In this document: positions 7,363-51,485 of the stretch, one piece after another
Position numbering within the stretch: position 1 is the stretch's first letter
Layout of the letters: the number at the start of each line of letters is the position of its first letter
Source of the DNA: Pseudogymnoascus verrucosus
Taxonomy: Eukaryota
NCBI GenBank assembly: GCA_001662655.1
Contig: KV460206.1
DNA length: 64,000 nucleotides
Reading direction: 5' to 3' (one strand)
Notes under the pieces: model-generated
Seen by the model: only the letters and a program-made list of their open reading frames with translations
What the model was told of the DNA's origin: nothing
Databases searched by the model: none
Translations under genes and position numbers: made by a program

Positions 7363-9037
7363 TTATGCGTTCCTCGACATATCTCCACGGATCCTGTTGT
7401 AATCTAAGAGGCCTTCGATCGAGCCAACAGCGCTAATGGCGATATCCTGATCCCAGAGCTTCCTCTGTGCGAAGTCCATGATGTCCTTCTCAGTGATCTT
7501 GCTGACGACACGCTCGACCTCCTCGGGGCCCATGCGGCGGCCAGAGGTGATGATCTGGCGGCCGATGTCCTCGGCGACGGCGGTGGTGCCGTCAAGGGAG
7601 AGGAGGATGGAAGCCTTGAGCTGAGCCTTGGCGCGCTCGACCTCGGCCTCGGTGACGTTGTACGACAGGCGAGACCACTCACGGAGAGTGAAGTGAACCA
7701 GGTCGTCCAAGCGGGTCAGGTTGTCGGAGACAAGGTAGATACCCCACAGACTAGACATGTTAGCTACATATATAAACGAAGGCTACAGTGTAACATACCC
7801 AGTGTCGCTGTACGAGGTGGAAAAGCTCATGAAGCTGTTGGCCAGGTCGTTCTTGTGAACAAAGCCGCTGAGCTTGCTGCCCATGTGAGGAGCGTTGCCC
7901 ATGGCCTTGTCCCAGTTACCGACAATAGCCTGGGTAACGAGAGCAGTGAAGTAGTCCTCATCCTTCCAGGAGACACCCTCGACGGCAATGGCAATGTTGG
8001 CAGTTGGGATGGTGTCATCACGGATGCGGACTTCCGAGCCGACGAACTCAGGCTTGCGCTTCTGGAGCTGGGCAACGGCAGCGGACGCCTGGGAAATTGG
8101 CCCAGATGGGAGACCGGCGAAGTGCTTCTCAGCAAGCTCGACGAGCTGAGCGTGGGGGACACCACCAGCACCGACGAGGACCATGCGGTCGGCAGTGTAG
8201 TTGGTCTTGATGTAGTCAACGAGATCCTCCCTTTGGATGCTCTGGATGTTCTCTGCCGGGCCAAGGATGGTGCGGCCGAGCGGCTGTCCCTGGAAGGCGG
8301 TGGCGTGAAGGTGGTCGAAGACAACCTCCTCGAGCTGCTTGTCAACCTCCTCAGACTCTCTGAGGATAACATCGCGCTCACGCTCGATAGCGGACTTCTC
8401 GAGCTTGGAGTTTTGAAGGATATCGGAGAGAATGTTGACGGTCGCGGGCACATCGGCGTTGAAGGCCTTTGCGTAGTAGACAGTGTTCTCGCGCTGTTGT
8501 AGATTAGCATGCTGTCTAGTATATCATTGCTGATGTCATTGCTGATGTCAAAACATACAGATGTGTAGGCGTTCAGGTGTCCACCCATGTTCTCGATTTC
8601 GAGCTCAAGCTGCTGTTGTGTGCGGTTGGAGGTTCCCTATTCATCAAATCAATATCCATCCATCCCCAAAAGCTTTTCCCAGCTTCTCCATGACTATTTA
8701 CCTTGAATGCGAGATGCTCCAAGAAGTGTGCTGTGCCATTGGTCTTGTCCGTTTCCGCCCGAGATCCGGCATCAATCCAAACACCAACAGTCGAAGTCTG
8801 TGCCCATGGCGAGTGCTCAGTGGCAATCTACGTGTCTCCGTCAGTCCATTGAATCTCACAGCTTCCATCGTCTCGATGCGCGCATACCGTCATGCCATTG
8901 GAGAGAGTTGTGCACTCCGTGGCGACGCCATTCTTCGTGGTGACTGGAGTTGCAAAACCTCTCCTCACGGGGGCGTTGAACGCAGCACGCTTGCTGAGGC
9001 CCTGGGTGAGGTTAAGTGCTAACCGCCGGGACGCCAT
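7363..9037 (-). CDS. MAS1: Mitochondrial processing peptidase beta subunit / complex III core protein 1 (peptidase M16); exons 9037..8888, 8827..8702, 8636..8559, 8493..7799, 7750..7363
   Basis: Intact HxxEH zinc motif in NGTAHFLEHLAFKGT; GGHLNAYTSRENTVYYAK; SFSTSYSDTGLWGIY; four canonical introns; presequence MASRRLAL. Confidence 0.96.
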
Positions 9038-30689: not shown

Positions 30690-33600
30690 TTACATGTCGA
30701 AATGCTCGCCGTTGATCATGCTGCTATCCTCGTGGTTATTCGACCTAACGATACCGCTCATGCCGCTCAGGCGATTCGTCTTCGTGTTGTGATCGTCCCA
30801 CGCCTCGTCCATCTCGTCAATATCGTACTTCGTGCGGTCTTGGAAGTGATCATCGATCGAGTTCTCGTCCACAAAGGTGAAGCCCTTGAAGTTGGCTTGC
30901 ATACCAGGCGACAGCGGGGTCGAGGTCACGATACCGGCAGCCAGGGCTGCGGCACGTGCGTTGAGCGACGAGGCGCCGTTAAGGGCGTTGGTGAATTCGG
31001 GATCGAAGTTCGAGGTGTCCGTCTCTGACTTGAGCTTGGGCTTGAAGGGAGGCGTGATCAGCTTCTTGGTGAGAGCCTCCCAATCAATGTCGGCAAAGAA
31101 TGGGTGCCTCTTGAGCTCCTCAGCGTCGTCGATGGCGCCGAGACGGTGTTTGGGGTTGCGATTCAGAAGGCCCTTAACAAAGTTGCGGCCTTCTGTCGAT
31201 AATGTATCCCTGGGAAAGCGTACTTTCCCGAAGGCAATGTTCTTGTACATTTGTTGGGTATCTTCCGCGTAAAAGGGACTCCAGCCACAGCACATCTCGA
31301 ACACCAGTACACCAAGCGACCAGAAATCGACCATCTTGGTGTATCCGGCCTCATCGAGTAGTACCTCAGGTGCGAGGTACTCGGTGGTCCCGCAAAATGT
31401 GTTCGTTGTATCATTCTTCGTTAAGTTTGCCTTTGATAGGCCAAAATCGCAGAGTGCAATGTGTCCATTGGCATCAAGCAGAATATTCTCTGGCTTGAGA
31501 TCGCGATAGACAATGTCGTGTAGATGCAAGTGCTGAAGCGCAAGAATGAGCTCTGCGATGTAAAATTTGGCACGCTTTTCATCAAAGCGGCCTTCCTTCT
31601 GTAGATGCCAGAAGAGCTCGCCACCCGACATGTAGTCCGTGACGAGATATAAGTCGGTAGGTGTTTGGAAAGAGAATTTGAGGCCGACAATGAAGGGAGA
31701 GTCGGTCATAGCTGTGCGGACCAAGATATTCCTCTCACCAACAGTGTGTGCAACCTCCTTCTTCTGCACAATGACCTTCTTTTGGAGGACCTTCATGGCG
31801 TAAATTCTCTTGGTGTCCTTCTTTCGGACTTGATAGACTTGGCCGAATGTACCCTTTCCGATAAGCTTGAGGATTTGGAAGTCTTCTGGGCCGTAATGTC
31901 TCTTGTCCGTCCGTTCGAAGGAAATTTCAACGTATACTTCGCCGATCGAAAAGTCCTCCTCACCCTTCCTGTCTCGTAGAGGATACCAGCCCTTGACCGG
32001 AGCCGTGTCATACTCCGATAGCTCGGGGTTAAAGTCAACGTGACCCAAGAAATCTTCGGACAAGGAGCCGCGGTCGTAGACGCTGATGCTGACCCTGGAA
32101 TCATCACCAACAACATCACTTTGCAAAGTTAGCCTAATGTTGATAGGAATGGGTCTCGTGGTAAACTTACAAGACAGCTTCCGTATCCCACTTCGGGTTA
32201 GTCATCGATCGACGACTTTTAACCTTGAAGTCTCGGGGTTCCGGGTCGCTGGTGTTGCTGCTTTGGCGGCTCTTCATTGGAATTGCCATTGGCCTGCCAG
32301 AGTCGCTGGGTTGGCGCGAGATTGGGATGCTACCCGGAGGTGGGCTGATCGTCGCGTCTTCGTCGTCATCATCCTCATCCTCGGATCGCGGACCCTTGGA
32401 AACAAGCTCGTTGCGTTGGAACACCGCCACAACATAGGGATCCTTGCTTCGGCGCAGGCCTCTCGCTTCGGCTATCTTCACAGTGAGCTTTCCTCGTGGT
32501 GCCCTCACGGGTGCCCCGCTTATATCGGAGCTGCTCGACTTCGTCTCAGATAATCCCGAGGGTCTCTTGGGAACTAGATCGTGGCCATGGTCACTATTGT
32601 CCGAAGTGGACGTGTTGTTAGAGAGCGCTCGTGTTGGTGTCGCAGGATGGCTCTTTTCATCGCCAATTGTTAGCCTCTTGAGCATATCATATGATAAAGA
32701 ATCAGAAACTGAACCAGAAGCAATACGGGAATGAACTGGGGTATCTGGTGCAGTCGAAGTAGGAGTTGGCTCTTTTGGAGTCGAGATATGGGAAGCAAGG
32801 ACGTTCGAAGGAGTCAAAATGTTGGATAACGTCTTCAACATTGAAGAAGCACCAAATTTGGGAAGTATGGATTCTGATATGGTCTTGTGATGTGGCAACG
32901 AAATCTGGGATGTAGGAGATGCAATCTCCGGACTCGCAGCTTCCCCATCTTCAGCAGTCGAATCGTTGGATTTCAACTTTCGAACGGAAGGTGGTTTGGA
33001 AACCGGTGGGGTTGGGTATGGATGTGGATTTTGTGACGCGCCATCTGCTACTGACGAAGCTCGGCGTTCTGTTTTCTCGTGTGGCAAGAGGCAAGGGGAA
33101 TCCTCACTATCGCCACTTGAGTTCTCGCGACTAGAACTTCCTGTTGCTGACAGATTCTCCTCAAGCTCCGTCGTCGTCTCCCGCACATGGAGCACCGGCG
33201 GGTTCTCCGCCTCGGTCCCAACAGCAGGAGTCTCAAGTGGAACAGAAATTGGATTTTCAGAAGAACCAGAATTGAGACCAACCTGAAAATAACTGTGCAT
33301 AATCCCAGGCAACCGCTTATCGGACGGATCAGGTTTCGGTGTCGCGACTCCCGAGCGAGGAGTGTCGGAGTCAATGTGATCGTTCGCGTCATCTTCGCCA
33401 GATTTACTAAAAAACATAGTCTTGTCAGCTTGGTCGTCCAGGTATATTCGAGGCAGTTCGCCGTTTTCTGAGGGCGGCGACGGATACATGGTGTCGACGA
33501 CGAAGTAAAGAGCGGGGTTTTGAGGCAGCAGTGTAGTATCGAGGACCCGGCCCGAATGATCACAAAACTTCTTGTCTCATTCTTCTCAGAGCAGGGCGGT

Positions 33601-33968
33601 GCTGGAACAGACGGAGTTGCATCAGCTGTGATAAGCTTTGATCCAACCGGGATATGTTCGCCCCGAGGCAAGTACAGTGCTGCAGCAAAGATACATCAAC
33701 CGCGGGGTATCCCGAAGTAACGTTCCAGGGAAGGTGCGATTATGAAACTGAAGCATGGGAAAAACAATTTTAGGAGCCGCATAGGTCGTCTTTATATTTG
33801 GGAAGTCGCGACTCCCCCAAAGGCGCCAGCAGTGCCAACGGAGCAAACAAAAGCCACACAAACGTGTCTGGGGGGATAGGATTTGCCGTACCTTGACATC
33901 ATGGCCTGTGTTGCTTTCCTCAACATGTCTTGGGCGCCACCGCCCGAAGCTGTCTCAGTTCCCGTCAT
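30690..33968 (-). CDS. SCH9: AGC Ser/Thr kinase Sch9 with C2 domain; exons 33968..33892, 33406..32171 (optional in-frame intron 33282..32653), 32118..30690
   Basis: Kinase motifs LIGKGTFGQV, YRDLKPEN, DFG, TNTFCGTTEYLAPE; hydrophobic motif FKGFTF; C2 domain GKLTVKIAEARGL..DPYVV. The first exon is inferred from an in-frame splice (GTACGG donor at 33891; GCTGAC branch and TTTTTTAG acceptor at 33407). Confidence 0.95.
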
Positions 33969-34770
33969 ATTGTGAGTGTATACAGGTATCTGGGATCCCA
34001 GCTGGTCGCAATGTGCATGAAAACGGTACTGAATTGATTGTTGTGGTTTGTGGTTGTGGGTATAGGCGGCAATCGTTTAAGTGGCGTTCAAGGTGGCAGA
34101 TTCGTAGATTCGTGGGTAGATTTCGTGAGCAGGTTCGACAGTACTGCAAGGGAGCGTGTGTGAAGCTTTTGAGACCAGAAGCAAATGGATCTCTCGTAGA
34201 TATGGGGGAAGAGCAGCAGTCAATATGCAAATGACGATGAGCGGGATCGTAGTAGTGGCAGACAGCGCGTAGGCGGGGTCGATTTTCGCTAGGTCGGTCT
34301 GGCGGGGGGGGGGCGTTGTCAAAAATATAGGGCGGCCGGTTTATATTCGAGAACCAGTCTGATATTGTTTTTGGGGTATATAGAGTAGAGGAGGAAGAGA
34401 GGAGAGAGTAAAGATAGAAGGCATAAGGGGAAGGAGTTGGATTTTCATGGAATGAACCATCAAAGAGCGCGATTATTTGGGATTATGGGGGAAGAGGTGG
34501 GTTTTTTGGGATTTTGACTTTCGCTACGGGAGTAACTCGTGTAGGGAAGGGAGGAGGGAGGAGTACTAATAGTACTAATAGTACTGATAGTACTAATAAG
34601 TACGAATAGTGTGGTATAGTGGACGGTAGTAGACGGTGTACCATGTAGTCGTAGTAGTAGGAGTTAGCCGTGTAGGTAAGTCGATTAGTCCCAGTAGTTC
34701 TAGTAGTCCAGGTAATAGTCCAGTAGCAATCTAGTCCTCTTAGTGTTATTATGGGCTCCACAACACGCAC

Positions 34771-34926
34771 CACACAAAACCACACAAACCACACAAACCA
34801 CACACCAACACACCACACAAGCCTTGACAAACGAACAACGATGGAGACGGGACCAACGCGGTCTACGGTCTATCTACGGTCCACGGCCTAGAGTGGTAGA
34901 GTGGTAGAGTGGTAGAGTGGTAGAGT
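34771..34926. repeat. Short tandem repeats upstream of SCH9: (AACCACACA)-like units and (TAGAGTGG) x ~4.75
   Basis: Directly visible at 34771..34819 and 34889..34926. Confidence 0.85.
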
Positions 34927-37893
34927 ACTATTAACTACTACTACTACGCCTCGTCATTCTCGGCCTGGACGAAGGGGGGGAGGAGATGGGAGGGGAGTTA
35001 GAGGATAAATGGAGAGGGGATGGGCTATGGCAGGGCGGGGAAAGGGTTTTTTTCTCTTCTCTTACTCGTTTCAGCCCTGCTCCATTTGATCTCCATTCTC
35101 CAGTCTCCAGTCTCGTCTCGTCAGCTAATAACAAGTGAGCTGATTGTAATAAGCCGCTGCCTCCGTGGGGTATATGGTACCGTATAGGAGGATCTCGGTC
35201 TCGGTGCTGTTTCTGACTGTCTGGGTGTGCGTGTTTGTTTGTTACCATGCTGAGGAGATATTGGTTGTGGTGTACTCCGTGTATACTGTACTGATACATA
35301 AACCAAAAATACTCTCTCTCACTGTGGCTGGCATGGCATGGCATATGCACCTCGGACATATGCGCGCGCTGAGCCGGGAGACAAAGCAAGCAAAAAAAAA
35401 AGAGAAACAATAAAAGAATGCATTTCTTTTTCTTGTCTACCGCCATTCCCCCCATTAATACCGTTTGAAATACTATCATAATTGTTGTTATATTGCTATC
35501 ACTGCTATTACAACACTGCACTGACTACACTGTGCCGTAAACCCTGTGCCAGAGCAAACACCCGCTATTGCCCGCCCGCCATGCTACACAAAACACTCGG
35601 ACCTTTGTTTTCCTACATGTTTTCCTTCTGGAAGCTCTCCTTTCCTTCTCCCGGCTATCCCAAACATTTTGCCATCCGGGGCTACGTCATATGTGGGCGG
35701 GATTGCCGATACGCCAGACAACAGGCCCAACAAAAGTCCATGGACACAGCAGATTCGTCCAGGCGGCCCCTTTTACTTACTCATGGTCCCTCTACTCACC
35801 CTCACTAACTATCTCATCAACTGTGTACTCACTACTTACTGTACTAACTATTGAGTCCCATAGTGGTTACTGCGCTGTTGTGTACTGTACTCGAGATAGC
35901 TGAGGTCGATGCAAGTAATCCAAGCACAGCTGTATCCTGGCCGTGTTACCCCCATGCCGTGGCCCAGTAAGCAGGCAGAGAAGGATCTAGAGACACGCAG
36001 GCGGCAAAGAGGCAAAGACAAGACAGCCAGGAAGGACTCGAGCATTCTCCCATGCGCCTCCTTTTTCTTACAAACACCCCATTCACTCATGCCAAAAGTA
36101 GTCCCTCATACTGTGCATTTTCCATTACTCTAGCCAAGGGGGTACCCAGCAATCTACATCTCACCGTCGGACCGGATAGGGTGCTCTGTGCTGTCTATCC
36201 TGTGCTTCGCCGCGGATCGATGTCCCTAACAGTTATTTTAAGCGGAGTATCTCATCTCTGATCATCCCAAGGAATCCCAAGGGACCCCCAAGCCTCAGCA
36301 CGCCAGCTGGAAGATATCGGAAGCTGGGGTTATCAGCTAATATCTACCGTATCGGGCATCACACAATCGGGCAGCGACCATCCCTTCCAAGCCCGCCATT
36401 TTTTCCTATTCCCCTCACTTCAACTTCCCCATCCCTTCCGCTCTTCCCTTCGTCCCTCCATCCGCTTTCGGATTCCTGTCAAAAAAGCAAGATCTCTGAC
36501 ATTCCGTCCGTCAGTACGTACCCGTACTACCAGCCAAGAGGCGCAGAGGCGTAGACGGGCTGGGAGGATTACCACACTTCCATACACCCATACATGCTGA
36601 CTCAGGCCATCCTCTCAGCCCCCTCGCGTGGATGCTTGGCATAGTGCTGGAAATTTCAATAATGCCATTCTTATGGGAGCACAGATCTGACCGTCTCGCC
36701 TCGGACCTACTGCGGTATCATTTCCCTTCGTATCTGGCACAGATGCGAAACAAAAATTTCCCTTGAACGAGCTGATATATTTGATATTGCCCGTCTCCAA
36801 GACATTGTATTTGGGCCCCGGTCCTCAATTCCCGGCTCAGCGCGTGCAAAGCAAGCACTGCGCCTTGCACAGACACACACACGCACACACACCACACCGT
36901 CTCTTTTTCCCATCCCTCCGAACTGAGGTGAGCAGGGCTGGCTTCTGACGGCACGGCGGAGGACGTCTAGGGCACTGCCGGTCCATGTGGTGTAGTTTAG
37001 AGTAATTTTTCATATCACGATTCACATGCAAATTTTGCGCGATTCATGTTGCCTGCCGGAGGATCCAGGGTCCGGAATTAGCCCAGCGGCGGGAAGTAAG
37101 TGAATAATGTACTCGAGTATACCATACATGGTATTGTACTCTATACTGTATATCGAAAAAGCCGCCCTCTCTCGATAAACCCCAGCAAGCAAAAAGGAAA
37201 ATACTTTGGGTGTGCAAGCAACCACTTGCATCTTCGCATGGGACAATCCGTTCTCTTCTTACCAGAATTAATGCCTGCCACCACACGCCCTTTTTCTCCA
37301 CGGTACCCATGGAAAAATGAGGCGGAAAGGCTCCTCATTTGATATTACCGTGAGATCTCGGAATGGTGCCGAAATCGTCGCCGCCGGTTCCGTTTCAGAA
37401 TTGCCCCACATAAAATAGTATGTGAATCCAGAAAGGTACTAGTGTTTTTAGGGTTCAGCACGTGATCGGCAAATCATATGATTTGCCGCTCACGTGTATA
37501 TGAGCCTGAGGTATCAAAATATTTCGACACCTGAGGCTACAAGGCTGCCATTGCAAGGCTTAGTTGGCGACACGCCAGAAAACGTGACCTTGAACGTCAA
37601 AGCCAAGCTTCGCGACCGTGACACGCCAAATATTCCAAGTATAGCACCGGAAGCTACTCGTTCCAATCCCAAGCTACCAGCAATTGTCCCTCGCGTTTGC
37701 GCCGTCCGCAAATATGGGTAGACGACCAGGCAGAGCGGCAGCTAAGCAAGCTGCCGTCGCCCTCAGTACGTTTGCAATCCCCCCCGAATTCAAAGCTCAT
37801 ATTTTATATCACCCCGTCTCGCGCGACCAGCTATACTAACCTCAACCCCCAGAGAACACACCCCAGACCATTGAAGACCCGGAAGACGAGACC

Positions 37894-39437
37894 ATGGCGG
37901 ACGTCCCTACCTCCGACCCCGTATCCCCCCGCGACAACGACGACGACGACGACCCCGACGCAGAGGACGACGGCACCCCAGCGCCCCAGGACTCAGAACC
38001 CCCCTCCGAAGCAGCCACGCCGCAACCCGAGCCCGAACCCGTGCCGCGCAAGCGCCGCCTCGGGCGCCCTCCCAAGATAAAGCCGCCGGGATGGGACACC
38101 CCCGACGATGACGGCGCACCTGCCAGTACCCCCGCCAAGCGCGGGCGCGGACGCGGTGGATTCGGTCGTGGAGGTGGACGCTGGGCGAGGAGGGGAGGGC
38201 CGTCGCATGTCACGCAGCAGCCGATTGATAAGGAGGGGAACATGATGAATGTCGAGAATGACGAGGTGTCGCTCCCAGAGGACGCAGAGGGTGAGACGAA
38301 GGTGGATAAGATGGGTCATCTACAGGGCGATCGCGAGTACAGGTGCCGCACATTCACGGTGTTAGGGCGCGGACAGCGCTTATACATGTTATCGACCGAA
38401 CCCGCGCGCTGCGTGGGTTTCCGCGACAGTTACCTCTTCTTCACGAAGCATAAGCGGTTGTATAAGATTATCATCGACGACGACGAGAAGCGCGACCTGA
38501 TTGACCGCGAACTGATCCCGCATTCGTATAAAGGCCGCGCTATCGGTATCGTCACCGCGCGCTCTGTGTTCCGCGAGTTCGGCGCCCAGATCATCGTTGG
38601 TGGAAAGCGCGTTTATGATGACTATGAGGTCACTAAGGCGAGGGCTGAGAACGTTGTGGCGGGCGAACTCGCGGACCCGAATGATGTCTTCAAAATCGGC
38701 GAGCCGTACAATAAGAACCAGTACGTCGCCTGGCACGGCGCAAGCTCCGTGTACCACTCCGGCGCCCCGACGGTGCCTCTTCAGGCTGGAAAGGCTGCAG
38801 AGTCCAAGAAGCGCCGCGTCATGGTTAACGACACGAATTGGATGCTCGAGCACGCGCTTGAGGCTAGGTAAGCCCCCTATCTCCCCCCTCCCCCGAAAAA
38901 AATAGTATAGTCAGAAACTAACCAACCCCTAGCCGCTTCAACTCCGCCCTCGCCGCCACCCGCCGCCGCAACCTATCGGGCGTCTACGACCCACACACAA
39001 ACACCATGCAATACCCGCAAATCATGCAACCCACCCACGCGCGCTGGGAGCCCGTCGGCCCTCTTGACGCCGCAACAGCAGGCATGCAAGCCATCACTGT
39101 CTCCACTTCCACCCCACCCTCTCCCTCTGCCGCCGACACCATCTTCCCTCCTGTCCCCCCACAACTATCGCGGAACTTCCTAATCGTCGACACCGTCTAC
39201 GAGAACGCGTCGCACTCGCACCTTGGTATACCCGGACCGGATGGAGGGGATATGGATCTTGGGTTTAAGGGGCTGGAGGGTGTGGGAGAGGATGTCAAGG
39301 AGTTGCTCCCCGCGGAGTGTAGGGAGGCGTTTGAGAGGGCGTTGGGGAGGGAGAGGGTGTGGAAGGGGGGGTGGGGGACGGAGGTGGAGGATGGGAGGAG
39401 GGGGAGGTTGGTTATTGATAAGGGTGTTATTTTGTGA
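37894..39437 (+). CDS. NPL6: Chromatin-remodelling complex subunit Rsc7/Swp82 (Npl6-like); exons 37894..38867, 38933..39437
   Basis: CRC-subunit domain GETKVDKMGHLQGDREYRCRTF...YMLSTEPARCVGFRDSYLFF...VTARSVFREFGAQIIVGGKRV; AT-hook-like RLGRPPK; GVYDPHTNTMQYPQIMQPTHARWE after the intron. Confidence 0.9.
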
Positions 39438-39747
39438 GGGGGTGCGGGGGGTTCCTGTGTTGGTGCGGGCGCATGGGCGGTGATGGGATGGGGTGTTTTT
39501 GGCGTTTGATTGTGGGTGTGGTGTGGTGGCCTGCTGGTGGGTTTTTTGGGCTGAGAGGGGATATTGAACTCAGCTTTACTGCACCTTTTGGGGGGTGGAG
39601 ATGGGGTTATAATGTAGGAATATATATTACGTCGTCTGCTCTACTCCTCTTGTCAAGCCTACGGGCCCGCCCTTGCTTACCCGCACAGTATTGAAGGCCG
39701 GATATAGATAACCAATCCCCTTCTCCATAACCCCTTTCCTTTGCTTC

Positions 39748-39946
39748 TTACACGGTCGTCACTTCCGTCAGTCGTTCCTTCTCCTATTGCGATATTTCAA
39801 GGGTCATTCCTTCCCTTAATAGTTGGCCGATCCTTTCATTATGAAGGAAGGAACGACCCTTGAGATATATTTAATAGAGGAAGGAACGACCCTGTCAAAA
39901 AGGGAAGGACGAACAACCAAGGAGGGAAAGAACGACCCGTGTGTAG
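39748..39946. mobile_element. Foldback / MITE-like imperfect palindrome
   Basis: Arm 39771..39820 is the near reverse complement of 39838..39890. Three GGAAGGAACGACCC-like units lie on each strand; ends are CACGG...CCGTG. A target-site duplication is not clear. Confidence 0.5.
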
Positions 39947-40107
39947 CTGTATTTTATATTTTTTCGTTCTTTCCTTATGTGGATGAGAAGGGTGGGTTTT
40001 ATATTAGATGTCTCTCCAACCTCTAGGGGATGATGGGCTTGGTACGGATGACATTGGGTATGTGCGTAGGTCAGGTTATGGGACTTGAAGCTTGCGCTGG
40101 AACTTAA

Positions 40108-42450
40108 GATGGATGCGAGGCGGGGGTAATGCGGGGGGGATACGGATCTAAGAGGAGGGCAATACGGATGCAAGTTGGAGGAAAGACGGATGCGAGTTGG
40201 AGGCAAGACGGGGATGCAAGATGGAGGCAAGGCGGATCCAAGACGGATCTAAAGCGAGGGCAATACGGATCCAAGACGGAGGCAATACGGATCCAAGACA
40301 GATGCAAATACGGAGGGAGGCAAGACGGAGGTAATACGGATGGCATCGTGAATTTGCGCATAATGGGCTATTAAAACAGGAATCTGCGCAAAACCGAATG
40401 CATGTCGAATTCATTCCGAATGTATTAGCTAACGCAGGCCTAATATGCGTAGAACAGGCTGTGAAAATGGGAATCTTGCATCAACACGGATCCGACACAG
40501 GTCCGACACAGATAGCATCGTGGATTTGCGCAAAAGGAGTTATAGAATCTAGAATCTGCGCTAAAGCTATTGTATGCTTAATGTATTAGGAATGCATTCG
40601 TTAATATAGATAGACCTAACGTGCGTCGAGCAGGCTATAGAAATAGGAATCTTATACCAACACAGATCGGATATACATCCGACACGGGTCCGACACAGAT
40701 GCCATCGTAGACCTACGCAAAATGGATCATAGAATCTGGAATCTGCGCTAAAGCTATTGTATGCTTAATGCATTAGGAATGCATTCGTCAACACAAGCTT
40801 AATACGGACACGTCTAGCACTAGAACAGATCGAAGATGGATGGGATACGGACAACATCCTGGATTCAGGTTAAGGGGGCTGTAGAACGGGATTCTTGCTT
40901 TGGAACTAGATACGGAAGGCATATTGGGGTTGGATTTACGCAAAGGGGGTTATAAAATAGAAAAGTTGCGCAAAACGGAATGCATTTGTCAACGTAGGTT
41001 CGTTTAAAGGGGTGCCAACGCGTGTTCGACGTATAAATGACTATAGGAACAGCTATACTAGAACTCAATATGGATCGGATGGATGATGGAACACTGTCCA
41101 TAGCGTATGATTGCTCAAAATGGGCTACAGAACCTGGAATCTGCGCCAAAGCAGTTCAGACAGGGTTCGAACAACCTGCGCAGAAGAGGCTATACAGTCT
41201 AGGATCTGCGCCAAAACAGTTTAGACAGGGTTCGGACTCCGTGCGCAAAAGTGGCTATGAAATCTAGAATCTGCACCAAATCTAATGTATGCAGAATGCA
41301 TTAAGAATGCATTCATCGATACAGGCTTAATGTAAGGCTATGAAGTAAACATTTATGAAAATCAGGAGGCTCTTACTATAGAATCAAAAACCAGCGCTAA
41401 ATAGTCTGTGTAGGAGTTTAGGCATCATATTGAATATAAATTCAAAATGGGAGTTAGCCATCAGAATAAATGTGCGCGTAGAAACTAGAATTTGCGCCGA
41501 AACTGATGGATGCGGAATATATTCGGAATGCATTCGGATTATATGTGGAATCTATACGGAAATCATATACAAATTATTCGAAAACAATACGGAATCTATA
41601 CGGAATCTATACGGAATCTATACGGAACCTATACAATTCATATTTGAATAATATTCAATTTATATCCATAATGCATTCACCATACAATCTCATTATGCGC
41701 AAAATAACCTATAAAATCCTAAATCTGCGCTAAAGCATAATTTATATAACTTTTTAGATCTACGCAAAATCAACTAGAAAACATGAAATCTGCGCAAAAG
41801 CGGAGGAATAGTTCGACCGGCCGGTCGAACTACGCGATTCTATCCCTCTGCTTGCAAAAGGGGAGTTTGGAGTGCCTTTGTCTATGAGAGGATCAGTAGT
41901 CATAGAAGGCCACAGAGAGGGGAACAACTAACCCCTTTATATCACGTGTTATAGAGTGGGAGTTATATAGCATTGCTTCAAAATTGCGCAAAATGCACAC
42001 TAGAAATGGGAAAATGCGCAAAGCCGGAACAAGGCTTGACCGAACAGTCCGGCCTAGCAGTTGTTTGCTAAATGCCTTTGTTTATACATAGTTTAGTGTA
42101 CATAGAAGTTGACAGAGGTGGGCATATCCATCCCCTTAATATCACGTGATGGAAGGGGAAGTTAGACAAAACCCCCTGTAATTTTGCGCAAATGTAGCTG
42201 TTCAAACAGACACTTGCGCAAAATCGGGTTAATGTTAGACCAGCTAATTTAGTGCAGATCCAATATTTACAGAGCTATGTTTATGCTGTTGGGATTTAAG
42301 GGACGGCAGTCGACAGGTTTTAACGCATAACCCCTTTCCCATCACGTGATGGGAAGAGGTTGAACGCTCCCTACATATTTAGCGCAAATCCTACTACGAG
42401 AGCGCGGATTTGCGCAAAACCGCATGAAGGTTTGTCCGACCGACTAGCCA
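40108..42450. repeat. Complex non-coding repeat array: ~40-bp paired-TGCGCA element with variable spacers, 11-mer subrepeats and 200-bp hairpin units
   Basis: At least 12 copies of T(G/A)CGCA-N24-TGCGC(A/T/C)-like box pairs. A well-conserved duplication runs ~40491..40613 vs ~40678..40800 (offset 187). No sustained ORF. Confidence 0.9.
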
Positions 42451-45400
42451 GCCAAACCTCATGCTTGCACGTGCACGCGTCGTGTGAATATTCACAGACT
42501 CAACACACACAGTCGTCGACAAACACACGAAGCCCAACAACAATCACGTGACAACAACCTCCCCGCCCAAGAAATCAGGGCATCAACCATGCACCACCAA
42601 CGTGCATCAACCACCGCCACCACACCCACCACCACACCGCCACTGACGACGATGACACACTCCTCACCAGGCTATGGTGTGGCGCACCCCCCCCGGTACC
42701 CCCGCCTCTCGATCGATAAGATGAGGGATGGGCGGGTTATTACATATTGAAGTTGCGTTGGGTGACTAAGTTGTCTTTGTGGCCGATGGTGGTCGATGGT
42801 GATGGGGGGGGGTTGGTGGGGTGGAGGGGTTGGGCGCAGGTAGGCGGTTAGGTGAGGGGAGGTGCATATGCCTGTTTGAACCACGAGCATGGAAAGGCGT
42901 TGATACCCGTGGTTCCTGAGTCGTATGAGATGGGATGGGAAGGGATGGAGAGGAGGTTGGCGCGGGGGGTGTAGGGCACACACTCACATCACCTCCCGTT
43001 TATCTCCATCCCAACCAGACCAAGCGATCACGGAGTCCGCGGAACGAAACTCTCCAACGGTACCGTACTTTCTGCAGACTTTAATATCGGGAAGAACGGA
43101 GATGGAAGGGGGGGGGGGGTAAAACGGCGATATTACGATCCACACATGCACGGCATACTCTAGTTTCTGTATATCGACCCTGTAGAGTAAGTTTGGTAGA
43201 GTAAGTGGTTTAGAGTCAGGGTAGAGAGTAGGGGGCAGGCAGGGTTGGAGAGAAGTGTGCGTATCAGGTGTCAGGTACGCCGTTTTTTACCATATAGCTT
43301 CGGCGGTAGTCTGCAGCAGCGCCGCTGCGAAGTAAAGGAAAAAAAAAAACCCTCACTATCACCCAGTCCTACCCGCCGCGCCGAGCAATGCCATGTCCAA
43401 TGGTCCAGCGGTTATCAAGGGCCCATCACCACCGCTGCTTTGCCGTCACCTGCCGCAACGGTGGGGGTCGCGTGTGTCCCCGCTGCAAACCCTACTGTTA
43501 CTGTACTCTCCACCTCAAGATCGAGAGGTTGGTCTGGAGCGGAATCCCCCTTACTAATCCCACCCAGCGGTGAGCCCTCGCTCCCGTGGAGAGCCCGATG
43601 GGATGCTGGGTCTGGGTATGCTGATCCCCTGGGCGGGCGGGAGGGTCTGGATGGGATGGGCGGGTAGAAGGCTAGAAGGGGTGTGCGGCATCTCACTCAT
43701 CTCTGGACGACGGCGGATGGTTTTCTAGCGTAGCGGACGGGTGAGGGTTTGGGCGGCGGCACTTGGTGGCGCCCGGAGAGGGGTTGGTGGTATTGCTTAC
43801 TGTATGGGAAAGGGAATGGGAAGTTTGATGCGGGAGGGAGGTGTGAGAGGAGGAGAACGAGAGGGAGGAGGTGGGATGAGAGGGAGGGACACGGGATTTA
43901 GAGTTGGGGGTGAGTACACCTGTAAGTTACAACACCACAGTCAGTTTGAGAGCATATCCCATCCCATCCATCCTCGACGCGGGACTTCACAAGACCCCTC
44001 CCTCTCCATCCATTCACCCGCCCTCGCCCTGCCTTCAGGAAGAAGTAAGTAAGTAACGTGCATCACCTCCCCAACGCACTTCCTCGCTGTCCCCGCCTCG
44101 CCTCTGCACCTCCATCAACAACGAGTGTAAACGTGCCTGGTATACCATACAGCTCCAAACCGTAAGAAGATGTGCCACATGGATCCCCTCTCCTCTCCTC
44201 ACCCAGCCAACCCATCGATCGTCCACATCAGCGTCGATGCGTGCTTGGCACGGGGGGTATCGGGGAGTTTTTTCCTGCTTTCTTGCCTTTTTGGGGTGGT
44301 CTCGCACTACTGTACTGTACTACTACTCTGCGTATGTACGTACGAATGGTATCACTCCAGTCAATGCTCATACGTAGAGGCGGGAGAGGTGGGAGCTTGG
44401 ATGGTGGTGATACACACACCGTTACGACTAACCTCGCTGCTGGCCGCTGGCTGAGCGGAGAGGGGGATGCGTATGGGGTGGGGGCGTGCATACCGCATAC
44501 CTTACCGCACCAGAGCAGCAGCACTGTACGTACGGACGTGCATCTGCCATGTTCAAGGATAGAGAAACGGTAAACTCGGCGAGGAAACCCAAAGCTGGTA
44601 TATGCACACGCACAGAGGCGGAGCTTGCATATACTGTTGTAGCCGTACGTGACCGACCGACCGACCGACTAACCCCCACCCCGTGCTGGCGCGGAGATTC
44701 ATAGCCGCTACTACTACTACACTACTGTAGTGTAACTTGCTGGTGGTGCCAGAGGAGGACTGTACCTGTGCAGGAAGAAGTAAGTGCAGTGCAGGATGCA
44801 CGACCTCGTCATGAGTTGAGTTGAGTTGAGTCGGTGCGAGACAGCCCGCGAGGTGGTGTACCGGATACAGAGCCAGGACAGGAGAGGAAGGGGGGGGGGA
44901 GAGTCATACAGGCTACATGCACGTACATGGTATGGGATGATAGAGGGGGGATGGCTTACCCGGAACGAACGATCAACGTGCGCTGATTGATGATGGTTCG
45001 TGGACTCGGGTCGGGTCATGTCATGTCCATGTCGCACTGTGTGTGTTTTGGGTGTGTTCCGTCGTCCGTCATCAGATGGGATGGGATGAGATGGGATGCA
45101 CGAAGTGAGGGAGGTTGGTTCATTGCTTGCTGCAGTGGTGGTGCACGTTACTTACAGCACGATCATCCTCCCACTGTGCTGCTGTTCTCACCAAGCGTGA
45201 CGAGATGTCTAAGACGCGGTCCCCCCCCTTCCCAAACAAACGCGGGATTGGGCATTACACGTGTGTGTGGTGGCGTGAGAATTCCTAGCTGACGGTGGAG
45301 AGACATATGGACTCACCTTACTCACCTCGCTCGCTCCTTCGCTCTCGTCATACGGAGGGAGTGGGAGTTGGGATAGGATACGAGATTGTAAGACCCTCGG

Positions 45401-47427
45401 GGCTTTAAGAGGGAGGTCTTGTGTCGCCTTCCTGTCGTCAGAGACAGAGGAAGCTCGAATGAAGGCTTGTTTGAGCTCAGCTCAGCTCAGCTCAGCTTGT
45501 ACAGTTGATCGATCGAGCAAGGTAGATGTGAATGAGAGGTGAGTGAGTAATAGTTATGAGTGTGGTCAGTACTACCTCCCCAACCCGTCATAGTCGTCCT
45601 CGTCGCCAAGGCGTCGTCGTTGCTGTTGCTATGCCAGTCCGTCCGTCTGTCTTTGAGTAGCTAGCTCATCCCATACAACTGTGCAGGACAGTGATGAGTG
45701 GTACTATGGATATTCCGTCCCAAGCCAGCTGTGGGATAGACAGCCAATTACAGCCCCACGAACTCGCCGTCTCTCGAAAATGCTGCCCGAACGTGGTCCA
45801 CTCACTCATCTACAGCTAGCCGCTTGGGTAGAACTGCGCGTGCGTGCGTGGTAGTAATTCTGCCGCGGCAACGGTCTTGGTATCAGTCAGTTTATGCGGC
45901 CGCGTACGGAGGGGACGGCATGAGGTAGTAGTAGGTAGGCACGACGATAATTCGATATAATGGGAGGTGGAGGAGGAGGAGGAGATGCGTGTGGTGTGTG
46001 TGTAGGAAACCCCTAAAGAAGGAAATAGGAGAGTGGGGCTATACCGGATTCGGAGGTGATTCTTCCCAAAACGGGAAAAGTCAATAAACACAGACCACCA
46101 CAGATCCTCAAAGGGGCGGTCTTGGCCTTGGCCCTACTACTGTTTTTCCTGTGTGTGTGTATCAAGCAACTCCCCCACTCTGATTGGTCCACACCCTTTC
46201 AAACGCAGAGACATAAAAAGAGAACTCGATAATTTCAAAACCCCCCCCCTTTGGCCCAATCAGAGCCAAGGTATTGCCGAGGCTGGCTGCCCCCGTCCAG
46301 AACAGTAATTTAGTCCCTATCAAGAGAAACTAATGGTCCCCTTTTTTTTTAAGGGCGGTAGAGCGGTAGAGCGGTTATGCCGGAGGAACATGTTTTTTGG
46401 CCTGTGCTTCTGGTGGTGGGTTCTGGTACGAAAAAGTGTATTTTGAGAGAGACAGAGAGGGGCTTGGCGGTGCTAAATGTAACTCTGGCCACAGTTTACA
46501 AGAGAGTATTCGGCATAGTGGTACTTAGTTTACCAATACGGTAATTTTCTCTTCAATGACCGCCACAAGCCTACCGCCCGCGAAAGTGAAGTGGGAATGG
46601 TACTTACGGTATGGTATGTATGTATGTATGTATGTATGACAGAGGGTCATAATCACAAACCTGCATCATCACCTCCCGAGCGTATGGTCTTGAAGGAACC
46701 CATCACCGCTGTGACGGGATCATCGGTTGTCTGAGGTGTCTGTCTGAGCTTGGGTTCGCCCGGTCGGCCGTTATTGGGGATTTGCTTTTTCTTGCCTGTG
46801 GGAGGGGGGGAGGGGGAAGTGTATTTTTGATACACAGGCGCGACTTCGCCGGAACACGGAAAAAGGGAGGAATGGAGACTCAGGGTTTGATGGTGCGCTT
46901 CGTGATGTACAGGAGGGAGAGGAGAACGCGTTAGAGGATTGTTTTCGTATCCACTCTCGAATTTGTCTGTGTCTGTGGTTGAGTAGTGTTAGTAGCGTCC
47001 GTAGTTGTCCATAGTGTCAGTAGTAGTGCGCTCAACGACTTTCTTTCCCACGATTTTAGTCTAGGCGGCGATGGATGGGGACGGACGGAGATGAGGGTTT
47101 ATGGGTTTGAGTGTGCGGGTGGTGTTGGTGCCTGGGACCGGTGGGTAATCCGTGCTTGTGCTTGCTGGGAGATCTCCTTTTAATTGTGTGTTTAATTATG
47201 GGTATTCTTTGGTCGGTAGTGTGGTGTATTAGTTTGGATAGTAGGTTCTGTATAGTTCTGTTATAGTCTGTGGTCTGTGGTTGTATTGGATTGTGTGTGG
47301 ACAGGCAAATTAAGTCGGGGATACGATAATATGGATATGGTAGGTAATGTTACTGACACGGTTTGTTATGATATATGTATAGTGCTACTTTGATACTCGG
47401 GATAGACTCGAGCATATGATGCGATGC

Positions 47428-47617
47428 GTACGTGGAGTGTGCGTGTACGGAGGATGTACGGAGAGTATGAGTGTACGGATGATGTACGGAGAGTATGAGT
47501 GTACGGAGAGTGTGAGTGTACGGAGAGTGTGAGTGTACGGAGAGTGTAATAAATAGATAGTGTACGTGGAGTGTAATGAGTGAGTGTCCATATGAGTGCG
47601 AGTGTAATGAGTACGGG
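47428..47617. repeat. Minisatellite built on GAGTGTACGGAGAGT(G/A)T (~17-mer) units
   Basis: Tandem copies of gtacggagagtgtgagt / gtacggagagtatgagt, degenerating toward both ends. Confidence 0.88.
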
Positions 47618-49873
47618 AAGGTACTGATGCGTAATGCCAAAATAGCCAGACCAGAGCAGACCAAGACAAGAACCAAGAGCCAGACCACAAGCCAGGCCAA
47701 GAAGTTACGAGTTACCACCTGTGTTTACGAACTACGAACTGTGTGTATGTCAGACTCTGTTGTAAATGTACAGTCACCGCACAAGTTGTGTGTAAGAGTA
47801 CTTACTTGGCTTCGTACATATCGCCTCCCACCCGCCGCAGCCGTCCACGTCCATGTCCACGTCCACGACAACGACGACGCACAACCCTTTCCCTTCTCCC
47901 TACACCCACCCACCTATCACCACCGCCCACCCATCCTCCACTCCTCCTCCGCCCACCTCCACCTCCACCTCCACCACCTCCACTCCTCTCCCACCGCCAA
48001 ATCGTCTCTGTCTCTTGTCTCCGTAATAAAAATGTCTGTTGTGACTATGTCTGTGGTACCAATCGATACTTCTGCTACAGATACAATCCCCATACAACCC
48101 CACCCACACTCCCACCCACACTCCCACCCAAATCATCATCAACAACCCCAAGCCCACATGTACCCATCATGTACTCTACCATTTCATGTATAATTAGTGC
48201 ATTCCGCTCATCCCAATCCCATCCTTTTTTTCCGCCCTTTCTCTTTTGCCCTTCCCCAATCCCAATCCCAGCCCCATTTCCTCTACCCACCTCCTCCCCC
48301 CCCCAATCCTAATCCCGGCCTATCCCCAATCCCATCCCTTCCCATCCACCTTCTGCATCCACACACTCCTCTCCTCTCTACATCTCCGCCCTCCCTCTTC
48401 TCTCCTCCAACCACAGGCCTCTACTTACCATTCTCTCACCACTCAAACCGCTCTCCTACTCTCCGCCTCCCTTCTCCTCCCCTCCTCTTCCCTCCTCCTC
48501 CTCATCACCCCCCCAGTCGCTGGCGGTCTCCATTTCTCCCTCTTCCTTCCCCCCTACCCTACCACAAACTACTGCCCTCTATTTTTCCTCCTCCTCCACC
48601 CCCCCTCCACCTCCACCACCCAACCCATCAAGTCTCACCTTGGCACCTGATCGCTGGTTACTGGACCTACCGGGGGGTTACTGGGCCACAATTACTCTTA
48701 CCTTACTACTACCTTACTACCCTTGACTACCTCAACTACCATTACTCTACTCTACCTTCTTCTTCTACTCCCACTCCCAGTCCTAGTCCCAGTCCCAGTC
48801 CCATCCCTTCTATCCGACCGACCTCCGACCCTCTTCTCTTCCTCTGAGCGACTCTTGGTTTTTGCCTCCCGCGACTTCTTTGCTCCATTCTCCCAATCTT
48901 TTCCCTCTCCCGCCCGCCCACATCGTCATCCTCTTATTTTTTTTGCCCTCGACCACACGAAAAGAAAAATTTCTCCTTCGTGCCGCGTCAGAAACCCTCC
49001 TTCACGACCCTTCACGACCACTTTTCGCCCTCGGTTACGTCTTGGTGGTTTCTTGTTGTGAGGCTTGTCAAACAAAAATAGCCCTCGGACACTTGGGATT
49101 TTGTTACCGCGCCTCCTTGGGATCAGCCAAAACCTTCAACAACCCTTTCTTCCTTCAACCCACCCCATCGACCGGACCAGCTTTCCGACCTGCTCTTACC
49201 TGGCCCCTTCTGCAAACGACTTCACATTCACAATACGTTGTGTAATTCAGTTTACACTCAACTCGCTGTCCTGCTCCAGTCCGCCAGACATACTCTCCAG
49301 GTGTCAGCTTACTGGTCGTGTGGACAAACAGTCGCCTCTCAACACCGCCTCTGACCGCAGCACCCTCACGACGACCACACTCTCCGAACCAACCAGCTAG
49401 TCCCTGGGTTTACGTTATACGACCCTCATAAGCTACTAGGCAGATTCTTGCATCACGTTAAGACCGACACTTTCATCTCCGGCACGAGCAACTTCCCGTT
49501 GCAAAGCCCGTCCGCTTTCCGCCCATTCCCTGCATTTGATATACGCATTCTTCAAGTCGTAAACGTTCTCGCCACAACACACGCAAGCGTTTAAGCGGCA
49601 CATTTTCCCTTTCCTCTGATTCGAGAGTTCCGAGGACGCCTCCTAATCACACGTTTGATTTTCTGGAATACTACGAACCTGGTGAGCTTTTAGCTAAGTC
49701 TTGCCCTCGTCGTCGATCTTCAGCACATCTCGAAGCAAATACGCAACACAAAGCAACCACAAACAAACCGATATCTGCTTGATCTCGAAAACAACAGATC
49801 AAATACTATATCTACTCTCAGCTATCGCTCTTACTACCACACACCAAACATACATCTGAAGAACCACCCACGC

Positions 49874-49891
49874 ATGTCGACGAGACAATAG
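49874..49891 (+). other. Candidate uORF (MSTRQ*) in the CLG1-like 5' leader
   Basis: Only ATG between 48189 and 50069 outside the predicted intron 49971..50023. Confidence 0.5.
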
Positions 49892-50069
49892 ATCAAGGTT
49901 TTTGTGTGTTTCGCTCCGGATAGAGCTTTCGCTCTTGTCGCTCAGTTCTGTTAGAGCTGCGAAAGGACAGGTTAGTCGCTGCGATATACTCTCCTCCTTC
50001 GGATTATGCTGACCGCCTTCCAGATATTTATCTATCCTTTCCACTCTCAGTCCCTCCCACTCGCTCATC

Positions 50070-51485
50070 ATGCCGAACTTCTACAACCACCCCCGCGCGG
50101 GGCTCATTACACCACCGGACTCAGGCCATGCAATGTACGGATACCGCAACACTGGACCAGTTTCATACAACCAGAACAGCAGGAAGAACGGGTATGATGG
50201 CGTATCATACGCCGCCCCTCCCGGACCACTGATGTACCAGCCTCCACCAATGCACTACAACAACATGCCTTCAGTTGCTGCCCCGGGCATGCCTAACCAG
50301 TCCTACGGACCAATCGCTGCCCCGATCTTGCCAGCTCCCATCTCTGACCGCCCCGTTGATGCCTCCGGCCGCAACACCGCACAGAGATTCGAGCAACGCC
50401 CTCAGCAACCCCCAGCGAAGCAGGAGAAGATCACTGGCGGCGTCGCCCAGGAGTTGGATTATGAGATGGATCAGATGACCGACTACGTTTCAGACATGGC
50501 CCAATCAATGTATGCTCTCCTATGCTCTCCTCACATCCGCCTTGCAGATATTGACCTCGCCCGAAGTGTTATGCCTGGCTCGAAAGTCTCCCCGGCCTTC
50601 CGGAAGTTCGTCTCTGGTCTCCTGTCCTCGACTCGCCTCCCGAGCTCGACCATCCTGCTGGGAATGAACTACCTCGCTCGCCGCATGAGCATGCTCAACA
50701 GTCCGACGCCTCGAAAGACCACCGACGGACAGGTTTGGCGCATGCTGACCATCGCTCTGCTCCTGGGAAGTAAGTTCCTCGACGACAACACCTTCCAGAA
50801 CAGATCTTGGTCAGAGGTCAGCGGCATTGCTGTTTCTGAGCTCAACTCGCTCGAGAAGGAGTGGCTGCAGGCAATCGAGTGGAACCTCCACGTCGATCCC
50901 GTCACCGACACCGACTTCCACTCGTGGCTCGCCTCGTGGGCTAGCTGGAAGGAGACTAAGAACAAGCAGCGCAACGCGACCCTCGAGCGTCTCGCACCTC
51001 TTGCCGCTATCGACACCAACGTTCAGCGCAACCATGGTCAGCGCAAGCCGTACTCCCCAACATCTGCGTCGTATGGCTTCAACCAAGGCGGCAACGAGAA
51101 CCACCCGCCTTCGGCGTACCATGTTCCTACTCAGCCCCGATACGAGCAAACTTCATGGGCACAGGGCAGAGCACCACATGAGCTGTCTCCTCCTTCCGCT
51201 CCCGAGTCTGGCCCAAACACTCCAGAGTGGATGATGCTGCCAAACTCTGGCCTGCCACCCACCGACTGGTACGGCTACGATGCCTTCTACAACAGAAGAA
51301 ACCAGCAGCCATCAACTCACGTCTCGTACGCGCTTCCCCAGACCACTCCGTATCAGACTCCATACCACGGCCACTACTCCCAGAACCTCTGGGGTCACCA
51401 CGCTGGGTGCGGATGCGGGTACTGCGGTCGCCCAACCGACTCGTACTTCATGCCCACTTACGGCCAGCAAACTGTCGCTGGTTAA
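50070..51485 (+). CDS. CLG1: Pho85-type cyclin-like protein Clg1, 471 aa, intronless CDS
   Basis: Cyclin box GGVAQELDYEMDQMTDYV...FRKFVSGLLSSTRLPSSTILLGMNYL...LLLGSKFLDDNTFQNRSWSEVSGI...ELNSLEKEWL. Confidence 0.9.
   Translation: MPNFYNHPRAGLITPPDSGHAMYGYRNTGPVSYNQNSRKNGYDGVSYAAPPGPLMYQPPPMHYNNMPSVAAPGMPNQSYGPIAAPILPAPISDRPVDASGRNTAQRFEQRPQQPPAKQEKITGGVAQELDYEMDQMTDYVSDMAQSMYALLCSPHIRLADIDLARSVMPGSKVSPAFRKFVSGLLSSTRLPSSTILLGMNYLARRMSMLNSPTPRKTTDGQVWRMLTIALLLGSKFLDDNTFQNRSWSEVSGIAVSELNSLEKEWLQAIEWNLHVDPVTDTDFHSWLASWASWKETKNKQRNATLERLAPLAAIDTNVQRNHGQRKPYSPTSASYGFNQGGNENHPPSAYHVPTQPRYEQTSWAQGRAPHELSPPSAPESGPNTPEWMMLPNSGLPPTDWYGYDAFYNRRNQQPSTHVSYALPQTTPYQTPYHGHYSQNLWGHHAGCGCGYCGRPTDSYFMPTYGQQTVAG

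Follow-up and report, generated by a model that had tools for sequence, protein, structure and literature searches.

Introduction

The closest described counterparts of the locus analysed here, an array of paired short boxes in a 64,000-nucleotide stretch of contig KV460206.1 from the cold-soil fungus Pseudogymnoascus verrucosus (assembly GCA_001662655.1; this whole stretch is the window referred to below), are the minisatellites of fungal promoters and intergenic DNA, among them the promoter tandem repeats of budding yeast that were reportedly treated by Vinces et al. in 2009. With these the array shares its head-to-tail copies, its nested periods and its intergenic location, as well as differences in length or copy number among close relatives and an evolution that is faster than that of its flanks. 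It differs from them in that its units are long (65-225 bp) and hierarchical, and in that a 45-bp module recurs across several unrelated fillers. Another likeness is to the CENP-B box of alpha-satellite DNA in which a short protein-type box is also kept inside diverging higher-order tandem repeats; there, however, the binding protein is known and the setting is centromeric, whereas the array is one 2.4-kb locus without centromere features. Several DNA transposon superfamilies typically carry subterminal arrays of short binding sites, and these too crowd many short sites into some hundreds to a few thousand bases, but the array here comes without a transposase or convincing terminal repeats, has one orientation and, as far as seen, occupies a single locus.

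The first-pass annotation of the window had described the array as a bipartite element with two TGCGCA boxes at an invariant spacing of 30 bp, separated by variable spacers, and had taken this fixed geometry to point to a protein that binds both boxes. As described below, the tract is a real, statistically strong, single-orientation nested tandem repeat, and the module that its units share is a pair of half-sites spaced by 30 bp. The explanation that we favour, with evenly balanced confidence, is that the spacing was primarily inherited from a 30-bp duplication unit in a tract that has been evolving neutrally or nearly so.

Results and Discussion

A nested tandem repeat of half-site pairs

The box pair, written as TGCGCA-N24-TGCGC with at most one mismatch, was sought on both strands of the window and the count compared with that in 100 shuffles. 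There are 24 strand matches where 1.18 are expected (standard deviation in the shuffles 1.38, largest count 5; none of the 100 reaches 24), and 22 of them lie within 40063-42416, 13 on the plus strand and nine on the minus strand, the latter because box 1 is often palindromic; the other two, at 8025 and 8880, are isolated chance matches outside the array. All 12 pairs of the first-pass annotation were recovered at the starts it gave, each exactly 30 bp apart, together with a thirteenth at 40063/40093 that is absent from its list. From copy 1 to copy 12 the start-to-start distances are 172, 187, 223, 175, 65, 65, 454, 65, 224, 200 and 196 bp (repeat family D1), in agreement with those reported before except that the 454-bp interval, which spans two of the degenerate copies in the same annotation, had been left out. 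An nhmmer profile built from the 12 copies matches them with E values of 2.4e-12 to 3.8e-7 and recovers the four degenerate copies named earlier as weak matches at 40442, 40632, 41375 and 41478. A profile having been proposed as a check on the element, it yielded no further copy in the window, the best match outside having E = 0.6. Altogether there are 17 recognisable copies: 13 with both boxes at 30 bp, one with boxes at 20 bp and three without one of the boxes. All 13 intact copies lie head-to-tail on the plus strand. The spacing is thus invariant among the 12 listed pairs but not throughout the array, as the degenerate copy at ~41463 has its boxes 20 bp apart (41473/41493), which is consistent with a 10-bp internal deletion.

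The periods nested in this head-to-tail tract (40063-42422) are 7, 11, 22, 30, 65, ~175-225 and 200 bp, Tandem Repeats Finder (TRF) having given those of 7, 11, 22 and 65 bp and a repeat-family search those of 30, 172-224 and 200 bp. What had been called a bipartite element proves to be the half-site GAATYTGCGCAAAA repeated directly at a distance of 30 bp, with (G)AAT(T/C) before and AAA(A) after each box in the consensus, and with A-tracts recurring after each box at the same 30-bp period. The half-site is itself a repeat family (D3) of 13 copies, two of which lie 30 bp from the next. As the element consists of two tandem half-sites at this distance, the spacing comes with the duplication unit, and binding of both boxes by one protein is not established by it. 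Box 2 mostly has the non-palindromic sequence TCTGCGC and often reads TGCGCT or TGCGCC; the exact palindrome TTGCGCAA makes up six of the 26 boxes. Among the nested repeats is also a 7-bp TAGAATC doublet.

Units of 65 bp lie at 41112-41280 and at 41696/41761. At the larger scale, units of ~172-223 bp between 40318 and 41100 hold one intact and one decayed element each, and three ~200-bp units between 41800 and 42422 each hold an element, a CGG/CCG-rich palindrome and a CACGTG box; the palindrome around CCGGCCGG that is perfect in the first of these is present only in degenerate versions in the later ones. The palindrome GAATGCATTC, which the first-pass annotation had seen after several copies, occurs four times (40590, 40777, 41305 and 41526), always in the array and nowhere else in the window. 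The filler around it shows an 11-bp periodicity of its own, and the palindrome holds two inverted CATTC motifs that we take to be of the TEA/AbaA type. The word TGCGCAAA is found 11 times in the array and, as it has no occurrence in the remaining 61.5 kb, is not a common promoter word in the window. Two earlier judgements stand: the tract, with its nested repeats and several unrelated fillers, is not a simple tandem satellite, nor is it an element that has been described from fungi, as far as the literature on fungal TTGCGCAA/TGCGCA sites and on Pseudogymnoascus tandem repeats shows, in which no matching element was found. An Rfam scan of the array likewise gave no family at its gathering score and three weak rows at the level of chance.

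Comparison with relatives

Contigs of four relatives (X2, X3, X5 and X6) were aligned to 39400-44400; X2 and X5 are the closer ones, and their main contigs cover most of the array, while stretches that lack coverage in X3 and X6 were not counted as evidence. From X2 the array differs at 70 of 1663 positions (4.2%) and the adjacent non-coding DNA at 42826-44400 at 23 of 1597 (1.4%); from X5 the corresponding figures are 140 of 1241 (11.3%) and, for 42258-44400, 78 of 2143 (3.6%). On the left side (39939-40262) X2 shows four differences in 324 bases. In both relatives, then, the array has about three times the rate of change of neighbouring non-coding DNA, a ratio that the assembly of paralogous units may inflate. 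It also changes in length: 22 bases at 41587, in the 11-bp microsatellite, are absent from X2 and X5, and skips of 255, 91, 317 and 415 bp occur inside the array. The boxes are not spared: among the best-supported 40 of 310 variant rows, positions 40557, 40715, 40749, 41115 and 41275, all in boxes, differ from X2, and at four of the five it is the window that has the deviant base and the relative that has the consensus base.

Twelve Leotiomycete metagenome loci with relatives of the Rsc7 gene that lies to the left of the array (best protein identity 86%) were also compared with the window. The box-pair pattern is absent from all 12, no profile match at them is better than E = 3.4, and only coding DNA could be aligned. 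At the closest of them (L001) other genes lie downstream and no comparable repeat is present; the cyclin gene that the window has on the right side of the array stays near the Rsc7 relative at just one (L010). Of the loci that were compared, only those of Pseudogymnoascus have the element.

Beside the array, the stretch at 42826-44400 has many small indels and no codon periodicity and is far better conserved than the array in X2 and X5. A conserved transcript without coding function may lie there, or else the cyclin gene may have a long leader in this stretch.

Possible origin of the spacing

With its single orientation, its nested periods, its non-coding setting and, in relatives, its variation in length and its faster change than the flanks, the tract has the features of a minisatellite, and we regard it as a complex minisatellite at a single locus, known so far only from Pseudogymnoascus and ordinary rather than new. 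In the model we favour, replication slippage and unequal exchange would have built it up within a long stretch of non-coding DNA. Its oldest module would be a ~30-bp unit with the half-site GAATYTGCGCAAAA in it, a pair of such units in succession would have become the "bipartite element", and the half-site pair would then have been multiplied at periods of 65, ~175-225 and 200 bp while unrelated filler grew between the copies, in the form of 11-bp microsatellites of the GAATGCATTC type and of CGGAATCTATA, and of a ~160-bp module bearing CACGTG. The 30-bp geometry could have survived if small indels are rare in a short, non-repetitive stretch of 30 bp, perhaps with mild constraint, and any binding of protein to the boxes would be incidental or weakly selected. 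If the tract is no more than a complex minisatellite, it matters little, other than as a hypervariable marker for typing Pseudogymnoascus strains and as an example of how fixed spacing amid variable spacers can arise from a duplication unit alone.

A number of observations, gathered here, weigh against so neutral an origin. Ungapped copy-to-copy identity averages 0.647 in the element, while the 26 and 36 bases on its two sides give 0.298 and 0.343, and random 43-mers 0.26; the element persists across three to four unrelated filler families; and its GC-rich boxes persist in a tract whose GC content is 0.37-0.46, compared with 0.5-0.6 around it. With up to one mismatch per box, the histogram of box spacings shows 30 bp in 12 pairs and no case of 28, 29, 31 or 32 bp. 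The 30 columns of the 12 copies require at least 75 substitution steps by inference but not a single indel, where 3.8-9.8 indels would be expected at indel-to-substitution ratios of 0.05-0.13 (probability of none 0.02 to 0.0001); the ratios are rough, coming from one spacer pair and from the relatives, the copies were ascertained by their spacing, and copies with small indels might have escaped detection, though none appears in the histogram. In the relatives, three diverged extra copies, after 40536 in X3, after 40544 in X2 and X6 and after 42420 in X5, keep the distance of 30 bp (counted by hand from loose contig ends) although their interiors differ, and the additional box of X5, exactly 30 bp past the last box of the window, makes a series of three. 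In the predicted protein of another Pseudogymnoascus strain the box-derived residues are 10 codons apart in both of the copies that it fully spans. For the more distant X3 and X6, among the pieces listed, the array aligns at 80% or better only in the element-bearing stretches 40516-40544 and 41111-41237, on one contig each. Finally, the array adjoins a cluster of five CACGTG boxes.

The higher identity of the element looks like constraint, but it is weakened by three controls, namely the spacers, the box columns and the broken copies. The spacers, formerly regarded as drifted versions of one sequence, belong instead to three or four unrelated filler families, with significant alignment in 10 of 66 pairs and gapped alignment scores no better than those of shuffles. 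In all 10 alignable pairs the identity of the spacer (0.74-0.95) exceeds that of the element in the same pair (0.58-0.80), a comparison which, as local alignment favours high identity, shows the spacers to be not less conserved rather than more conserved. As for the columns, parsimony gives 0.45 steps per column in the boxes and 3.00 elsewhere, and the unevenness across all 45 columns of the element is significant (dispersion 1.94 vs 1.10; 0 of 2000 simulations), but once the 11 box columns are dropped it is not (1.30 vs 1.00; 165 of 2000 simulations), and since the boxes served to select the 12 copies, there is some circularity in the signal from the box columns. When whole units were aligned pairwise with gaps, at lenient costs, gaps fell even in the element, and the indel counts of this alignment were not used. 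Overall, the evidence for constraint on the element is weak, and the unrelated fillers, the loss of uneven conservation outside the boxes and the faster evolution of the array are further reasons why the fixed spacing does not establish a protein that binds both boxes.

A possible functional cluster of sites

A less probable but still serious alternative is that the array is a functional cluster of sites for one factor, similar to an enhancer or upstream activating sequence. The factor would recognise two half-sites GAATYTGCGCAAAA together, which as direct repeats 30 bp apart would present about the same helical face; tandem duplication would have supplied the sites, and selection would keep enough of them intact while individual sites turn over. 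Its target might be the cyclin gene, at a distance of 7.6 kb, or a transcript that starts near 42.5 kb in the CA-rich DNA where CACGTG boxes occur. Such a cluster would account for the identity of the element over its flanks, the few steps in the box columns, the lack of indels in the 12 copies and the spacing retained both in the extra copies of relatives and in the relative's predicted protein, and it would suit the strong enrichment of box motifs described next, the five CACGTG boxes within 600 bp at the 3' edge and the conservation, unusual for non-coding DNA, at 42.8-44.4 kb. It has to contend, however, with the circularity of the box-column signal and its disappearance without those columns, with spacers whose conservation in recent duplicates equals or exceeds that of the element, and with an array that evolves faster than its flanks and whose boxes are not depleted among the best 40 of the 310 variant rows. 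Moreover, four of the 17 copies are broken, and the motif is absent from other intergenic DNA of the window and from the 12 related loci. If the boxes are indeed bound, the array would offer a natural series of 13 spaced site pairs for studying how enhancers are built and tuned by tandem duplication in fungi.

Nor can a factor be assigned, although the boxes resemble the sites of several. In degenerate form the copper-response consensus of budding yeast is TTTGC(T/G)C(A/G). On the minus strand the sequence of 11 boxes is TTTGCGCA, which fits this consensus, and the pattern TTTGC[TG]C[AG] has 15 strand matches in the 2.07-kb array compared with 10 in the other 61.9 kb. Sites are paired in both cases, the copper-response ones occurring in pairs with multiple elements required and with TCTGCTC(A/G) as a related motif (PMC9040751). 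For yeasts the element is given as TTTGCTCA, and for Fusarium Mac1 the consensus derived from chromatin immunoprecipitation is DHNTGCTCANNN, with T and not G (PMC11563359). Against this T in the Fusarium core, TGCTCA is found in one of the 26 boxes (41112), and the relatives carry G; the promoters known for Mac1 have two to four sites and the array has 13 pairs. A Mac1 copper-response pair finds no support, either in the TGCTCA core or in a copper-uptake promoter, there being no domain of the Ctr-type (copper transporter) or Fre-type (reductase) among the 49 open reading frames (ORFs) taken from the window as a whole.

The middle sporulation element of the Ndt80 family is gNCRCAAAW, and most matches to this consensus are non-functional (PMC1326232); the available part of PMC12008772 gives no Ndt80 motif. 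The likeness lies in CGCAAA(A/T), the most conserved part of box 1 in the array, and NCRCAAAW has 18 strand matches in the array (2.07 kb) and 29 in 61.9 kb, but with the leading G there is only one, and the TGCGCT or TGCGCC of box 2 breaks the CRCAAA core. The C/EBP-PAR core of basic leucine zipper proteins, a TTGCGCAA or TTACGCAA palindrome, is represented by the exact TTGCGCAA of the six boxes noted above, with 12 strand matches in the 2.07-kb array and two in 61.9 kb, box 2 being mostly non-palindromic. It is tempting to speculate further that a candidate factor, possibly a copper-fist or Ndt80-like protein, recognises the two half-sites as one unit, and that the array and the five CACGTG boxes together act as an enhancer specific to Pseudogymnoascus, from which a long non-coding leader or transcript would be driven over the conserved 42.5-50 kb, upstream of the cyclin gene, but we consider this more specific scenario rather unlikely.

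Mobile-element, structural and mutational explanations

The idea that the array is the relic of a mobile element, either a subterminal array of repeats bound by a transposase or a cluster of small non-autonomous elements, appears improbable to us. It draws on the subterminal arrays of short sites mentioned above, on a 22-nt G-rich inverted pair (I10; 40117-40138 and 42687-42708, 86% complementary) that brackets most of the array and on strong hairpins just to its left, at 39770-39990. The arms of the pair, however, are low-complexity runs of G and C, with the copy at 40063 outside them, and the orientation of the copies is uniform, as in a tandem array. No transposase, integrase or reverse-transcriptase domain was detected among 64 ORFs of the interval that holds the array or among the 49 window-wide ORFs, so the transposase or recombinase site array suggested by the first-pass annotation finds no support. 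The element is found at no other place in the 64 kb, and in X3 and X6 its pieces, among those listed, are confined to a single contig each. A DNA-transposon array or small non-autonomous element was rejected, there being no transposase domain, no convincing terminal repeats and no other copies in the window.

Very improbable, finally, is a chromosome-structural element, whether a boundary, a TFIIIC-type clamp, a replication origin or intrinsically curved DNA: the array does lie at the edge of a 10.5-kb gene-free interval and has A-tracts after each box at a 30-bp period, but the TFIIIC B-box GGTTCGA is not enriched (one in the array, four elsewhere), no tRNA gene was found and there is no RNA family match in Rfam. 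DNA mutated by repeat-induced point mutation, which would show a high TpA/ApT and a low (CpA+TpG)/(ApC+GpT), was also considered and rejected, the former being 0.63-1.02 and the latter 1.18-1.69 across the array, values without such a signature by the customary thresholds.

Genomic setting

The features of the array and the two genes nearest to it are collected in Table 1.

Table 1. Positions in the window of the tract, its element copies, associated repeats and flanking genes
Feature	Positions	Strand	Basis or remark
Rsc7/NPL6 chromatin-remodelling subunit gene, two exons (left flank)	37894..39437	+	PF08624, E = 2e-56
Whole nested tandem-repeat tract	40063..42422	+	Pattern search, TRF, repeat families, profile
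Outlying 13th copy	40063..40098	+	Boxes TGCGTA and TGCGCT, 30 bp apart; separated from main array by G-rich repeat
G-rich 11/22-bp tandem repeat between outlying 13th copy and copy 1	40111..40345	+	TRF periods 11 and 22; family D6
Element copy 1	40350..40396	+	Boxes 40355/40385; profile E = 2.4e-12
Degenerate copy	40442..40481	+	Box 1 TGCGTA; box 2 decayed, still in 30-bp register; profile E = 0.046
Element copy 2	40523..40567	+	Boxes 40527/40557; profile E = 2.4e-12
Span of the four GAATGCATTC palindromes	40590..41535	.	Exact matches; TRF
Degenerate copy, paralogue of that at 40442	40622..40657	+	Box 2 lost; profile E = 1
Element copy 3	40709..40754	+	Boxes 40714/40744; profile E = 9e-11
Element copy 4	40933..40976	+	Boxes 40937/40967; profile E = 4.2e-8
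Element copies 5, 6 and 7 as 65-bp tandem repeat	41110..41282	+	Boxes 41112/41142, 41177/41207, 41242/41272; TRF 2.6 copies, 77% matches
Degenerate copy	41362..41401	+	Box 1 lost, box 2 AGCGCT; profile E = 0.4
Copy with 20-bp box spacing	41473..41498	+	Boxes 41473/41493; profile E = 0.017
11-bp microsatellite CGGAATCTATA x 11	41513..41634	+	TRF; 22-bp length difference in relatives
Element copies 8 and 9, 65 bp apart	41692..41802	+	Boxes 41696/41726, 41761/41791; profile; family D1
Perfect 24-bp palindrome centred on CCGGCCGG	41809..41832	.	Motif search; in first ~200-bp unit
Three CACGTG boxes at exact 200-bp period (41943, 42143, 42343)	41943..42348	.	Family D10; within last three ~200-bp units
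Element copy 10	41982..42026	+	Boxes 41985/42015; profile E = 3.8e-7
Element copy 11	42180..42226	+	Boxes 42185/42215; profile E = 5.4e-9
Element copy 12	42377..42422	+	Boxes 42381/42411; profile E = 6.2e-8
Two more CACGTG boxes (42468, 42545), just right of array	42468..42550	.	CA-rich, promoter-like stretch
PHO80-type cyclin gene (CLG1-like; right flank), 7.6 kb from array	50013..51482	+	PF08613, E = 4e-8

The array lies at the edge of the interval between the Rsc7/NPL6 and PHO80-type cyclin genes, the former with an ORF (37894-38871) that is 94-98% identical to Pseudogymnoascus proteins; according to the domain scan of the 49 window-wide ORFs, the rest of the window holds ordinary housekeeping genes. 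The 10.5 kb of the interval (39.5-50.0 kb) look non-coding: no 3-base coding periodicity is seen there, no ORF of at least 120 residues starting with ATG occurs before 47.5 kb, and none of the 64 stop-to-stop ORFs scanned against Pfam reaches threshold. Nonetheless, at least two deposited Pseudogymnoascus genomes list the array as a gene for a hypothetical protein (P0121 and P0122). An ORF at 41037-41264, which spans the 65-bp units, matches such a predicted protein from Pseudogymnoascus verrucosus with 100% identity over 75% of the ORF, and one from another Pseudogymnoascus strain with 89% identity. This is almost certainly a spurious gene call, the frame simply crossing the 65-bp repeat units. 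A second ORF in the array (40335-40586) had no protein match in the search. The sole addition from an exhaustive protein search (P0123) was rejected as an unrelated repeat protein without the box-derived peptide.

Several features of the surroundings may be recorded in their own right. The Rsc7 gene is flanked by unusually long stretches without coding periodicity on both sides (33600-37800, ~4.2 kb, and 39500-50000, ~10.5 kb) in a window that is otherwise gene-dense, and the DNA at 47.0-49.5 kb has a strong pyrimidine skew. At the right end of the array, five CACGTG boxes, which we take to be sites for basic helix-loop-helix (bHLH) proteins, fall within ~600 bases (41943-42550), as against 11 in the other 63 kb; one of them lies inside a perfect 20-bp palindrome (42336-42355), and a CA-rich stretch follows. 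The span 41943-42550 looks like a promoter under bHLH control with no ORF behind it. To the left, ~330 bases past the stop codon of Rsc7, two long hairpins at 39770-39990 have a folding energy of -86.7 kcal/mol, compared with -53.6 kcal/mol in shuffles (z = -7.3; 0 of 200 as good), and pieces of this stretch are found in the relatives on several different contigs and on opposite strands. These hairpins may belong to a small inverted-repeat mobile element or to a structure of the terminator region.

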